Shown here: piece by piece, positions 6,407-40,258 of the stretch | How the letters are laid out: every line of letters starts with the position of its first letter | How positions within the stretch are numbered: the first letter of the stretch is position 1 | Sequence record: PX915678.1 | Direction: 5' to 3' (one strand) | From: a phage | DNA length: 64,000 nucleotides | Program-made: the position numbers and the translations under genes | The notes under the pieces: model-generated | What the model was told of the DNA's origin: nothing | What the model saw: the letters and a program-made list of their open reading frames with translations, nothing else | Database searches by the model: none

Positions 6407-8386
6407 ATGACTTTATTATCTCCGGGCATTGAGCTCAAAGAAACTACGGTTCAAAGCACCGTGGTTAATAACTCTACTGGTACAGCAGCTTTGGCCGGTA
6501 AATTCCAGTGGGGTCCTGCTTTTCAAATTAAACAGGTTACAAATGAAGTAGATTTAGTTAATACTTTTGGTCAACCTACAGCTGAAACTGCTGACTATTT
6601 TATGTCTGCAATGAATTTCTTACAATACGGAAATGATTTGCGAGTTGTGCGTGCTGTCGATAGAGATACCGCTAAAAACTCATCTCCGATTGCCGGTAAT
6701 ATTGAATACACTATTTCTACCCCAGGTAGTAACTACGCGGTTGGAGATAAAATCACGGTTAAGTATGTTTCAGAAGATGTTGAAACAGAATGTAAAGTTA
6801 CCGAAGTAGATGCTGATGGAAAAATTAAGAAAATTAATATTCCTACCGCAAAAATTATCGCTAAAGCGAAAGAAGTAGGCGAATATCCAGCATTAGGTTC
6901 TAACTGGACCGCGGAAATTTCTTCGTCTTCCTCTGGTTTAGCTGCAGTAATAACTCTTGGAAAAATTATTACTGATTCTGGTATTTTATTAGCTGAAATT
7001 GAAAATGCTGAAGCTGCTATGACAGCTGTTGACTTTCAAGCAAATCTCGAAAAATATGGAATTCCAGGAGTAGTAGCTCTTTATCCAGGCGAGTTGGGCG
7101 ATAAAATCGAAATTGAAATCGTATCTAAAGCTGACTACGCAAAAGGTGCTTCTGCATTACTTCCAATTTATCCAGGTGGCGGAACACGCGCATCTACTGC
7201 CAAAGCAGTGTTTGGATATGGACCACAAACTGATTCACAATACGCTATTATAGTTCGTCGCAATGATGCTATTGTTCAAAGCGTTGTTCTTTCAACGAAG
7301 CGTGGTGAAAAAGATATTTACGATAGTAACATCTATATTGATGACTTTTTCGCAAAAGGTGGTTCAGAATATATTTTCGCAACTGCACAAAACTGGCCAG
7401 AAGGCTTCTCTGGAATTTTAACTCTGTCTGGCGGATTATCATCAAATGCTGAAGTAACAGCAGGAGATTTGATGGAAGCTTGGGACTTCTTTGCTGACCG
7501 TGAATCTGTTGATGTTCAGTTGTTTATTGCGGGTTCTTGTGCCGGTGAATCTTTAGAAACAGCATCTACTGTCCAAAAACACGTCGTTTCAATTGGGGAT
7601 GCTCGCCAAGATTGCTTAGTACTGTGCTCGCCACCGCGTGAAACTGTAGTTGGAATTCCTGTAACTCGTGCTGTTGATAACTTAGTCAATTGGAGAACTG
7701 CAGCAGGTTCATACACTGATAATAACTTTAATATCAGTTCAACCTACGCAGCAATTGATGGTAACTACAAGTATCAGTATGACAAATATAATGATGTAAA
7801 TCGTTGGGTTCCATTAGCAGCTGATATTGCTGGTTTATGCGCGAGAACCGATAACGTTTCTCAGACTTGGATGTCTCCAGCTGGTTATAATCGCGGCCAG
7901 ATTTTGAACGTTATTAAACTTGCTATTGAAACTCGCCAGGCGCAGCGCGATCGTTTATACCAAGAAGCTATCAACCCAGTAACTGGTACAGGTGGTGATG
8001 GTTACGTATTGTATGGTGATAAAACAGCTACTTCTGTTCCTTCTCCATTTGATCGTATTAACGTTCGTCGTCTGTTTAATATGTTGAAAACGAATATCGG
8101 ACGTAGTTCAAAATATCGTTTGTTCGAATTAAACAACGCGTTTACTCGTTCATCGTTCCGCACAGAAACTTCCCAGTACTTGCAGGGAATTAAAGCTCTC
8201 GGTGGAATTTATGAATATCGTGTAGTTTGCGATACAACAAATAACACTCCGTCAGTAATTGATAGAAATGAGTTTGTTGCAACATTCTACATCCAACCGG
8301 CTAGAAGCATTAACTACATTACCTTAAACTTCGTAGCAACTGCTACTGGTGCAGATTTCGATGAGTTAACTGGTCTTGCAGGTTAA
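6407..8386 (+). CDS. 18: contractile tail sheath protein
   Basis: 659-aa ORF (T4 gp18 is 659 aa); TATAAATA late promoter about 30 nt upstream. Confidence 0.95.
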   Translation: MTLLSPGIELKETTVQSTVVNNSTGTAALAGKFQWGPAFQIKQVTNEVDLVNTFGQPTAETADYFMSAMNFLQYGNDLRVVRAVDRDTAKNSSPIAGNIEYTISTPGSNYAVGDKITVKYVSEDVETECKVTEVDADGKIKKINIPTAKIIAKAKEVGEYPALGSNWTAEISSSSSGLAAVITLGKIITDSGILLAEIENAEAAMTAVDFQANLEKYGIPGVVALYPGELGDKIEIEIVSKADYAKGASALLPIYPGGGTRASTAKAVFGYGPQTDSQYAIIVRRNDAIVQSVVLSTKRGEKDIYDSNIYIDDFFAKGGSEYIFATAQNWPEGFSGILTLSGGLSSNAEVTAGDLMEAWDFFADRESVDVQLFIAGSCAGESLETASTVQKHVVSIGDARQDCLVLCSPPRETVVGIPVTRAVDNLVNWRTAAGSYTDNNFNISSTYAAIDGNYKYQYDKYNDVNRWVPLAADIAGLCARTDNVSQTWMSPAGYNRGQILNVIKLAIETRQAQRDRLYQEAINPVTGTGGDGYVLYGDKTATSVPSPFDRINVRRLFNMLKTNIGRSSKYRLFELNNAFTRSSFRTETSQYLQGIKALGGIYEYRVVCDTTNNTPSVIDRNEFVATFYIQPARSINYITLNFVATATGADFDELTGLAG

Positions 8387-38788: not shown

Positions 38789-38815
38789 TTTATTCTCCTT
38801 TGTTTGTGTAAGATA

Positions 38816-38844
38816 ATACTATCACAAAGGAACCATACTGTAAA
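38816..38844 (-). promoter_or_regulatory. early promoter upstream of the 110-aa ORF
   Basis: Minus strand GTTTACA - 17 nt - TGaTAGTAT. Confidence 0.45.
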
Positions 38845-38865
38845 CAACTTTGTGCAATCTTTGGA

Positions 38866-38893
38866 AAATAAAAAAGGACTCCCGAAGGAGTCC
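38866..38893 (-). terminator. terminator after the small basic protein gene
   Basis: GGACTCC-CGAA-GGAGTCC hairpin followed on the minus strand by a T-run. Confidence 0.65.
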
Positions 38894-38898
38894 TCAAC

Positions 38899-39075
38899 TT
38901 ATGCTTTCTGCTTACCAAAACGAGAAGCATCATCTCGAAGAACCGCACGTGCTCGGCGCATGATCTTCTCAACAGTTTGATTGATACGAGAGTTCGACCC
39001 ACGCTTGTAACCAGCGCGTTTAGAATCACCAACTTTCTTTTCAACTGCTTTCTTTGCTTTAGCTTGTTTTGCCAT
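38899..39075 (-). CDS. small highly basic protein
   Basis: 58 aa from the ATG at 39075 (MAKQAKAKKAVEKKVGDSKRAGYKRG...); the track's longer ORF extends to a non-ATG start; hairpin plus T-run terminator downstream. Confidence 0.55.
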   Translation of the reverse strand: MAKQAKAKKAVEKKVGDSKRAGYKRGSNSRINQTVEKIMRRARAVLRDDASRFGKQKA

Positions 39076-39117
39076 TATAAATTCTCTTTTAAATGAAAAT
39101 GCAGGACTTATTGGCAT

Positions 39118-39470
39118 TGCCTGCGCAAGCCCTCAAGGGGAACATAGGTTTTGTATATTTACCGACAGGATAACCATAAACCCGTCATCATACTTATAAC
39201 TCTTATCTGTTGCACACCGTTAGCTTAAAGGTTCCGGGTTCGATTTCTCGAGGATAAGATATATACTGATGGATATATAGGCCTTGAGGCGTACTCCCGA
39301 TTAGCCATCACCTCGGGGTAGCATGCACTTGCCGCTATAAGAATAACATTCAAGAGGTACACCGTAAAACTGCCGGGGTCTTAAAACTATAATGATTCGC
39401 AAATCATTAATCAGACAGTTCGACGGCTCCTCGATTTTAGCTCACACTAAGGCAGTGAATCTCCAATAAA
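39118..39470. other. ORF-free region of about 350 bp between rIII and the small basic protein gene
   Basis: Stops in all six frames, no ORF of 60 aa or more, in an otherwise almost gap-free genome; contains complementary GC-rich segments. Confidence 0.6.
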
Positions 39471-39719
39471 TTACTTCAGTGTTACCACAAAGTGACGAAC
39501 TGCTTTTCGTGCAGCAGAAGCCAAAGGCTTAGCATATTTAAGTTCATCTTTTTCCTGAAGCTCAGCAGCTAATGCAGTTTGAGCAGGATTCAGATGTTTG
39601 AAATAACGCAGGATTTCAAGAGCTTCGGCTTCAACATCAATAGATGCGCCATAGTTTTCGTGACCATTATTCCATGCGTTTCGTTGCAGTTCAAGAGCGT
39701 GTTGTAATTGTTTAATCAT
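39471..39719 (-). CDS. rIII: rIII lysis-inhibition accessory protein
   Basis: 82-aa ORF (T4 RIII is 82 aa) directly downstream of gene 31. Confidence 0.88.
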   Translation of the reverse strand: MIKQLQHALELQRNAWNNGHENYGASIDVEAEALEILRYFKHLNPAQTALAAELQEKDELKYAKPLASAARKAVRHFVVTLK

Positions 39720-39866
39720 TTAAAAATTCTCGTTAGAGATTAAAACTCGGTAGTCACGTTCTTCTGAATTTCATCTTCTTTCGACAGATCTCTCAGTTGT
39801 AGACTACCACATAGAATTGTTCGGTTAACTTATTATTCCGACACCCAATTCATATTATTATTTATA

Positions 39867-40202
39867 TCACTTATAAAGACACGGAATAGCTTTATAGTGA
39901 CAGGTAACGAATTTTTGTTTAATTTCTTTTGGCTGCTTAAGACCCAGAGCTACAAAAGGATGTGGAACGTTTCGAATTTGACCAACTGGAAGAGAAGTCA
40001 AATCACCAACTTCACAGAAACCTTCAGGAACATCAGGACCAACAGAGTGAACTACACACAGTTCAGGAACTTCACCTTGAACACGTTTACCGATAATAAG
40101 TCCTGATTCTGTAACTTCTTCATCACCGGCTTGTGCAGGTTCAGAAACTAAAATAACATATTCACCGACAGCACGAATTGGTAGCTGTTGTACTTCAGAC
40201 AT
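39867..40202 (-). CDS. 31: co-chaperonin gp31 (GroES-like)
   Basis: [39 protein letters not shown]... recalled as T4 gp31; 111 aa from the second ATG. Confidence 0.95.
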
Positions 40203-40258
40203 CATTTTTCCTTTTTGTTAACAGATGAATTAATAATAACAAATAATTCTTAAAGCAT

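Follow-up and report, generated by a model that had tools for sequence, protein, structure and literature searches.

A candidate structured RNA family with a predicted four-way junction between rIII and 30.9 of T4-type phages

The region between the genes rIII and 30.9 of T4-type phages very probably harbours a genuine, selected family of structured RNAs on the sense strand, as indicated by the comparison of its homologues. The element, termed the core in the following, is situated in a 64,000-nucleotide (nt) stretch of phage DNA (sequence record PX915678.1), the window, whose numbering at full length is used for all positions. The window derives from a Tequatrovirus (T4 type), with the 1 kb around the gap sharing 99% identity with many phages of Escherichia and Shigella. 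The gap, the rIII-to-30.9 intercistronic region, extends over 395 nt (39076-39470) and is larger than the stretch 39118-39470 which an earlier note on this DNA had singled out as free of open reading frames (ORFs) and as potentially coding for a small structured RNA. Freedom from ORFs was borne out: no credible ORF is present, stops occur in all six frames of the gap in every lineage examined with no frame open throughout, and the longest overlapping ORF, of 45 amino acids (aa) with a GTG start, matches no PHROG and no Pfam family. The analysis shows the gap to be a transcribed intercistronic leader on the minus strand, composed of the independently folding modules X1/X2, core, M1, M2 and M3 and, subsequently, the Shine-Dalgarno sequence of 30.9. 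The proposal of a small structured RNA is strongly supported by covariation, while structure, strand (minus) and boundaries (39193-39341) differ from the cues on which the note had relied.

Covariation and strand of the core RNA

Alignment of 17 distinct core copies with MAFFT, blind to structure, and derivation of a consensus with RNAalifold resulted in 44 base pairs in seven helices, 16 of which pairs show compensatory two-sided changes; such an alignment had been proposed as a check by the earlier note. Cells of paired columns hold standard pairs in 98.4% of cases, but in only 27-43% after a shift of the 3' partners by one to three columns, and none of 500 column shuffles attained the observed value on any of five measures. 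Compensatory events occurred independently in each of P1, P2a/b, P3, P4 and P5. Wobble cells, read on the minus strand, comprise 43 G.U versus one A.C, and therefore the selected strand is the minus strand, which is transcribed together with the genes. A covariance model of the core (R1) matches the window at 39195-39339 with 172.8 bits (E=8.6e-38) and nowhere else in the 64 kb. Folding energy of the single sequence is, on the other hand, unremarkable, the z-score being -0.5 for the core, whichever strand is folded, and -2.0 for the gap in its entirety. The evidence beyond chance is the comparative covariation and not the single sequence, for which the case is weak.

In the RNA sense, base 1 of the core corresponds to window position 39341. 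The core and its parts are:

39193-39341, minus strand: core structured RNA, 149 nt including the 8-bp closing helix P1; matched by covariance model R1 at 39195-39339
39334-39341, minus strand: 5' strand of P1, CUUAUAGC, which pairs with 39193-39200 (GUUAUAAG)
39280-39333, minus strand: P2 arm, with an invariant GGC/GCC, an 8x6 internal loop (AAGUGCAU/CUCAAG) and the hairpin P2a/P2b (GCUAC-CCCGA...UCGGG-GUAcGC)
39260-39279, minus strand: P3, the second arm, a 7-bp hairpin with loop CCAUCA and two compensatory pairs
39201-39259, minus strand: P4 arm, with P4 (UCUUAUC/GAUAAGA), the P5 hairpin, the P6 region and the invariant GCUAACGGUGUGCAACAGAU
39240-39251, minus strand: P5 hairpin with a GAAA-type loop (GAAA, GUAA or UAAA)
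39205-39224, minus strand: invariant 20-mer GCUAACGGUGUGCAACAGAU, the same in all copies

The predicted fold is that of a perfect four-way junction, closed by P1 and free of linker bases. Four of the five modelled pairs of P1 covary, the helix being CAUAUUAC/GUAGUAUG in Escherichia phage EcS1 and UUUAUAAGC/GCUUAUAAA in the CF1 type. Four pairs of the P2 arm show compensatory changes, with CCCGA/UCGGG of P2b replaced by CUCUA/UAGAG (PS2), CCCAA/UUGGG (PEi20), CCUGA/UCAGG (locus L075) and CGGAU/AUCCG (EcS1), while AUAUA/UAUAU of P3 becomes AUACA/UGUAU or AUUCA/UGAAU. The third arm, with three compensatory pairs each in P4 and P5, branches into the GAAA-type hairpin and a region of around 45 almost invariant bases; of the invariant 20-mer within it, neither a second copy nor an antisense target was found within the window.

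Constraint on the core

Across genera the core is 82-98% identical to the copy in the window, with the exception of EcS1 at 70%, whereas in the same phages nucleotide identity to the window is 70-83% for rIII and 67-84% for 30.9. The core is, on these figures, intact, under purifying selection and better conserved than its neighbour genes. Invariant columns make up 36 of the 58 unpaired but 42 of the 88 paired positions, and such conservation of loops and junctions is the pattern expected of binding or catalytic RNAs, unlike that of a simple stabilising hairpin.

Short 'hypothetical proteins' are annotated over the core in several GenBank records, such as KX258185 (kpv477_220; locus L003, 1417-1560, plus strand), ON528726 and MZ753803. 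As these ORFs lie on differing strands and in differing frames, they are almost certainly spurious. A U/C polymorphism that corresponds to a G.U/G-C pair toggles a stop codon, and therefore there is no conserved ORF or leader peptide.

Distribution and cassette behaviour

BLAST finds the gap in around 990 records of T4-like phages, of which only around 180 are covered end to end. The core as a query is found in 407 phage records at 408 places, nearly all of them single and always between rIII and 30.9. By host name these records are foremost of Klebsiella (161), Escherichia (130), Shigella (27), Enterobacter (27) and Yersinia (18), with fewer of Salmonella, Citrobacter, Serratia, Raoultella, Erwinia, Edwardsiella and others; the copy of EcS1 is the most divergent. 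Carriers include vB_EcoM_ACG-C40, SHFML-11, slur03 and Klebsiella phage KpV477. Identity is around 94% in Klebsiella (Jiaodavirus) and Enterobacter (Kanagawavirus) phages and around 85% in Serratia phage PS2, and the sequence immediately flanking the core cannot be aligned in any of these three. All known members of the family thus come from enterobacterial phages of the T4 type.

Among 40 loci retrieved via the rIII protein alone, 15 possess the core and 25 lack it, the latter including loci with an rIII 100% identical to that of the window. T4, T2 and T6 are without the core, which probably explains why it has been overlooked; T4 misses the central block of around 150 bp with precise junctions. 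The core seems to have become fixed in the phage lineages of Klebsiella and Enterobacter but to be polymorphic in Tequatrovirus, where the slot has three states, namely empty (T4), occupied by an unrelated hairpin insert of around 45 nt, or occupied by the core. The insert characterizes the T2/T6 type and is found in T6 (locus L088, 7541-7786), T2 (L089, 8348-8635), loci L027, L029, L032, L034, L038 and L042, and others. It consists of the hairpin GUCAGA-AAAAGGUUA-UCUGUC and has GGUUAUC-UGUC in common with the M1 loop; a related hairpin lies inside M3 in locus L044.

In Tequatrovirus the modules follow one another as X-core-M1-M2. Jiaodavirus and PS2 have M1-core-M2, the Citrobacter CF1 type has core-M1-M2, and M2-core-M1 is found in EcS1 and locus L043. 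The core always brings its own P1 along, and the modules behave as beads on a string. No target-site duplication was found at the core junctions in comparison with empty sites. The core is a cassette polymorphic for insertion and deletion and, because close relatives do without it, dispensable. The alternative raised by the earlier note, the scar of a lost mobile element, retains from this the precise insertion/deletion polymorphism and the alternative insert of around 45 nt in the same slot; the decay that a scar implies is not seen in the core.

Collections of genomes, metagenomes and viruses, scanned with an exact 18-mer, a pattern of the 5' half and a gapped 3' pattern, yielded no distant relatives outside the T4-like phages. 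These scans recovered the core only from T4-like contigs of around 165-177 kb, and the remaining matches were due to chance, some of them in GC-rich coding DNA. On a contig of an Alistipes metagenome-assembled genome (JAZRRF010000028.1, locus L024, around 7295-7334, minus strand), a gene-flanking stretch GGGUGAACCCGGA-[hairpin]-GCUAACGGUGUGCAAACAGAAAA resembles P6 and the invariant 3' part of the core beyond the requirement of the pattern, although the full model did not match; it is either a chance likeness or a minimal related motif.

Comparison with known RNA families

Among the 4227 models of Rfam 15, none matches the window at its gathering threshold. At E<=10 nothing is found in 38800-39800 except a terminator look-alike outside the gap, and nothing on the core alone (39180-39350), which covers riboswitch, ribozyme, intron, RNase P, tmRNA, small RNA (sRNA), 6S and Y-RNA-like models. 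The core accordingly belongs to no known class of self-cleaving ribozyme by covariance models, and a group I intron is rejected with no match of Intron_gpI, a position between genes and a length of only 149 nt. The T-arm-like word GGTTCGATT (39237-39245), in which the earlier note had seen a trace of a tRNA, exists on the plus strand; as a cue it fails, since it is antisense to the selected strand, where it is part of P5/P6. ARAGORN predicts no tRNA gene in the window, and the Rfam tRNA model finds nothing. Scans of the kind which that note had recommended, with covariance models and for tRNAs, thus resulted in neither a family nor a tRNA.

Homology to the T4 stable RNAs rnaC and rnaD was rejected, as R1 with filters off scores at most 8.3 bits in the T4 tRNA region, with no match on rnaC or rnaD in the right sense. 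A PeSL cassette was rejected likewise, as a consensus scan detects no promoter- or terminator-like site in 39190-39345 and the core is single-copy. Likenesses to E. coli ribosomal RNA proved compatible with chance, with 7 of 200 shuffles scoring as high for the one to 16S helix 27 (GGGAGUACG-CC-CAAGG) and 29 of 200 for the one to 23S 2056-2077 near A2058-A2062 (GAAA..GACCCCG.GAACCUUUA). BLAST, in a search insensitive to short matches, found no counterpart in 5,426 E. coli genomes. The searchable literature, queried also with the sequence itself, holds no description of an RNA at this place, while an earlier mention in the older gene-cluster literature is possible.

Other modules of the leader

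The further modules of the leader in the window are:

39354-39432, minus strand: X2, a long irregular hairpin in the 5' part of the T4-type leader (also of T4 itself), with an inner AU-rich hairpin followed by UAGUUUU
39147-39189, minus strand: M1, hairpin GACGGG...CUGUCG with loop UUUAUGGUUAUC and tail GUAAAUAUACAAAACC; present, before or after the core, in all T4-like relatives; unique in the window
39124-39140, minus strand: M2, small hairpin CCC-CUUGA-GGG followed by CUUGCG; contains CCTCAAGG; covaries across lineages; unique in the window
39091-39124, minus strand: M3, hairpin GCAGG...CCUGC followed by AUUUUCAUUU; terminator- or attenuator-like

M1, M2 and M3 are conserved in all T4-like relatives, with permuted order (loci L003-L005 and L043-L064). 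The M1 stem covaries, with GUGGA/UCCAC in PS2 and GUCGUGG/CCAGAC in locus L046, as read off the alignments. In M3 the stem sequence is replaced while pairing is kept (GGGAGC/GCUCCC, AACUGG/CCAGUU, GAGAGG/CCUCUC, GGCUCUA/UAGAGCU) and a U-rich tail always follows; a simple terminator scan did not call it, the loop being too long, and from its features we infer a function like that of a terminator or attenuator. Outside the T4 type, a further hairpin (UCUCC...GGAAGA) is predicted to sequester the Shine-Dalgarno sequence of 30.9.

The 5' domain X1/X2 is an addition of the T4 type. For X2, RNAalifold on 12 distinct sequences gives 25 pairs, five of them compensatory, which is moderate support, and with X2 the rIII-30.9 gap looks like structured RNA even in T4. 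X2 is present in T4 (locus L002) and in loci L027-L042, and in Salmonella phage STML-198 (L056) it is shortened to the outer stem only.

The GC-rich motifs named by the earlier note are all present, with CCTCAAGG at 39132-39139, CCTTGAGG at 39282-39289, CCTCGGGG at 39312-39319 and CCGGGG at around 39374-39379. The long-range pairing of CCTCAAGG with CCTTGAGG which had been proposed from them is, however, not conserved across relatives. The former motif belongs to the local M2 hairpin and has the covarying forms CCCUUGAGGG, CCCUUCGAGGG, CCUCUUAGAGG and CCCUAUGGGG in relatives, so that M2 elsewhere keeps its own hairpin but loses the complementarity to the core; long-range pairing is therefore unsupported. 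CCTTGAGG constitutes the 3' side of the P2 internal loop within the core, and CCTCGGGG, the 5' strand of P2b, pairs locally.

Flanking genes

The local genes are located on the minus strand, in the order gp31 (39867-40205), rIII, 30.9 and a subsequent strong intrinsic terminator. The features bordering the gap are:

39471-39719, minus strand: rIII, 82 aa, the upstream neighbour, from the ORF list; phrog_1457, lysis inhibition accessory protein (E=4.7e-44), and rIII in annotated relatives
38899-39075, minus strand: homologue of gene 30.9, 58 aa, very basic, the downstream neighbour; phrog_1427, function unknown
39084-39088, minus strand: Shine-Dalgarno sequence AAGAG of 30.9, conserved

The 30.9 protein of the window is 100% identical to that of T4-type loci, T4 gp30.9 included, and has no Pfam and no PDB match. 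Its gene starts at ATG 39075 and not at 39117, in view of the homology to T4 gp30.9 and of the conserved Shine-Dalgarno sequence and leader. T4 and most records use ATG 39075 (58 aa); the ORF finder extends the gene to ATG 39117 (72 aa), and the T6 record annotates this long form, which would cross the M3 hairpin and begins upstream of the conserved Shine-Dalgarno sequence.

A weak Rfam match to Atu_C8, an sRNA of Rhizobiales, at 38860-38943 on the minus strand (31 bits, below the threshold of 50 bits) is merely the GC-rich intrinsic terminator after 30.9, GAGGACUCC-UUCG-GGAGUCCUU followed by a U-run. The T2 record AP018813.1 carries plainly mis-transferred product names, with 'major capsid protein' at the position of dCMP deaminase and 'DNA ligase' at pseT.3. 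RIII has recently been tied to RNA metabolism via ribosomal protein S1 and the endoribonuclease RegB (PMC9409239). An RNA element at the rIII locus is intriguing in this light, while nothing in the present data connects the two.

Discussion

The core represents a new RNA family, absent from Rfam, of a familiar kind, a conserved structured non-coding element of a phage leader, with an unusual architecture. The explanation put forward here as a whole, a structured RNA family that acts as an autonomous module, has about even chances of being correct, and its second part, the mode of action, is the more tentative one. The core would be an accessory non-coding RNA, autonomous or acting in trans. 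As it lacks both a promoter and a terminator, it would be produced within the rIII/30.9 transcript, fold, and probably be excised from it at the AU-rich flanks. Through its conserved internal loop and its invariant 3' region it would next engage a partner, either a protein or a small molecule, and so serve a dispensable function in host interaction or takeover, like other patchily distributed accessory genes of T-even phages. A covarying closing helix of its own, the permuted order with respect to M1 and M2 and the high conservation of unpaired bases suggest such a context-independent RNA module, and the AU-rich flanks count in its favour.

Several observations weigh against this explanation. 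The first set of loci was fetched with an 18-mer from the invariant stretch and is biased towards invariance there, a bias of which the rIII-anchored set and the BLAST set are free. The depth of the family is small, identity exceeding 90% for most copies, and recent spread may account for part of the conservation of unpaired bases. The GGC/GCC pairs of P2 and the pairs of P6 are the same in every copy, so that covariation speaks neither for nor against them and both helices are unproven. With regard to the mode of action, which is derived from sequence comparison, a discrete species of around 150 nt and its partner are putative. In some lineages P1 is short (5 bp in Jiaodavirus) and AU-rich, which is commoner in switching helices than at the end of a stable RNA. 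Finally, the constant locus in every genome would also fit a function in cis on rIII or 30.9, although it could be explained equally by recombination through the conserved flanking genes.

A cis-acting sensor in the leader of 30.9, riboswitch-like or operated by a protein, whose bound state alters read-through of M3 or access to the Shine-Dalgarno sequence, would account for the latter two points, and we regard it as unlikely but as the most serious competitor. The features looked for in a riboswitch-type aptamer, covarying helices, conserved unpaired bases and a position on the sense strand upstream of a gene, were all found, the core being located in sense orientation upstream of 30.9 in 407 records and forming a multi-helix junction closed by a weak, AU-rich P1 with highly conserved unpaired bases. 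Potential effectors are at hand in the M3 hairpin with its U-rich tail between core and start codon and, outside the T4 type, in the hairpin that sequesters the Shine-Dalgarno sequence. A switch in the classical sense is hard to square with the modules between core and M3, as these vary from M1 and M2 in Tequatrovirus to M2 only in Jiaodavirus and M1 in EcS1. The sequence after P1 is wholly different between lineages with different modules intervening, and inspection, not exhaustive, found no conserved pairing mutually exclusive with P1, nor any conserved alternative pairing of the 3' strand of P1 or P4 with a downstream element. Moreover, relatives with an identical 30.9 and leader manage without the core, and in a genome where all genes are co-directed a position upstream of the same gene carries little weight.

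Perfect four-way junctions occur in natural hairpin and twister-sister ribozymes, and a patchy distribution over intergenic regions of phages is known for several classes of small ribozymes. The core might, by analogy, be a new self-cleaving or self-processing ribozyme that cuts the rIII-30.9 transcript and uncouples both messages, which its compact, self-contained fold, the many invariant bases in junction and loops and the patchy, position-independent presence in phage intergenic regions would allow. This is improbable in our estimate, as no known class matches by covariance model even at E<=10, around 150 nt exceeds the size of most small self-cleaving ribozymes, and the resemblance is topological only, with no cleavage site to be identified in the sequence.

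An element that acts at the level of DNA without any RNA function, be it a recombination cassette, the scar of a mobile element, the target of an endonuclease or a hairpin-bearing miniature transposable element, would explain the precise presence/absence polymorphism and the alternative inserts in the same slot. P1 resembles short terminal inverted repeats, and T4-type genomes are known to shuffle small cassettes, the PeSLs (PMC2839356, PMC4122927). The excess of G.U over A.C and the compensatory changes in five helices, however, indicate selection on a single, transcribed strand; the core lacks the sigma-70 promoter which a PeSL would require, and it is not decaying, being better conserved than the adjacent genes. 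An origin from a miniature inverted-repeat transposable element or an insertion sequence is rejected specifically, with around one place per record (408 places in 407 records), no visible target-site duplication at the junctions and an 'inverted repeat' P1 that covaries including G.U pairs. This explanation is thus very improbable.

That the core is the decayed remnant of a protein gene, a pseudogene of a tRNA or a small ORF missed in annotation, for which the 'hypothetical protein' annotations and the T-arm-like word could be cited, is hardly credible at all, contradicted as it is by the results on strands, reading frames and tRNA searches and by the 40 rIII-anchored loci and annotated relatives, which, where 30.9 follows, hold only non-coding gaps of 120-422 nt and in no case the intact protein gene that the earlier note had named as the observation that would speak against a structured RNA.

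Among known systems, the T4 stable RNAs species 1 and 2 (rnaC, rnaD) are comparable as structured non-coding RNAs of T-even phages in the 120-140-nt class, without a known function, without a terminator of their own and dispensable, those of T4 being derived from a polycistronic precursor. There is no similarity in sequence or structure, the genomic place is the tRNA cluster as opposed to the rIII-30.9 gap, and rnaC ends in a tRNA-like T-arm, which the core does not possess. With orphan structured RNA motifs and riboswitch candidates (PMC2864571, PMC5737381) the core shares a definition by covariation, a P1-closed junction, conserved unpaired bases, a consistent position upstream of one gene family and an unknown function; it differs in the lack of an Rfam match and of a conserved expression platform and in its movement relative to other leader modules. 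PeSL cassettes, composed of an early promoter and a stem-loop terminator and present in many repeats per genome, are likewise small and non-coding and subject to insertion, deletion and replacement between close T4-type relatives (PMC2839356, PMC4122927), while the core has no promoter, seven helices and a single copy.

The tRNA cloverleaf also combines a closing helix with three arms at a four-way junction, and tRNA genes are patchy in T4-like phages as well, but the core, at 149 nt, has no junction linkers and no signatures of D-, anticodon- or T-loops. Natural hairpin and four-way twister-sister ribozymes resemble it in the perfect junction, the arms with conserved internal loops, the compact fold and the sporadic occurrence; in contrast to these, the conserved loops of the core are located on the non-adjacent arms P2 and P4, and no covariance model of these classes matches.

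T4-type phages are the most thoroughly studied bacterial viruses and are widely used in phage therapy, and still around 400 sequenced isolates bear a complex, strongly constrained RNA that is unannotated and uncatalogued. The spurious 'hypothetical protein' annotations over the core merit replacement by a non-coding RNA feature. Nature provides relatives with and without the core between identical flanks, which renders the proposals on its function directly testable. A bolder version, which we consider rather doubtful, is that this 149-nt four-way-junction RNA may be the founder of a new functional class, a ribozyme, an aptamer for a metabolite or second messenger, or a decoy against a host protein of defence or RNA metabolism, which would be passed among phages of the T-even type as a self-contained RNA gene cassette and would have gone unnoticed since T2, T4 and T6 happen to be without it. 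If true, whether as ligand sensor, ribozyme or decoy, the core would represent a new RNA class and a new layer of host takeover or counter-defence by T-even phages.

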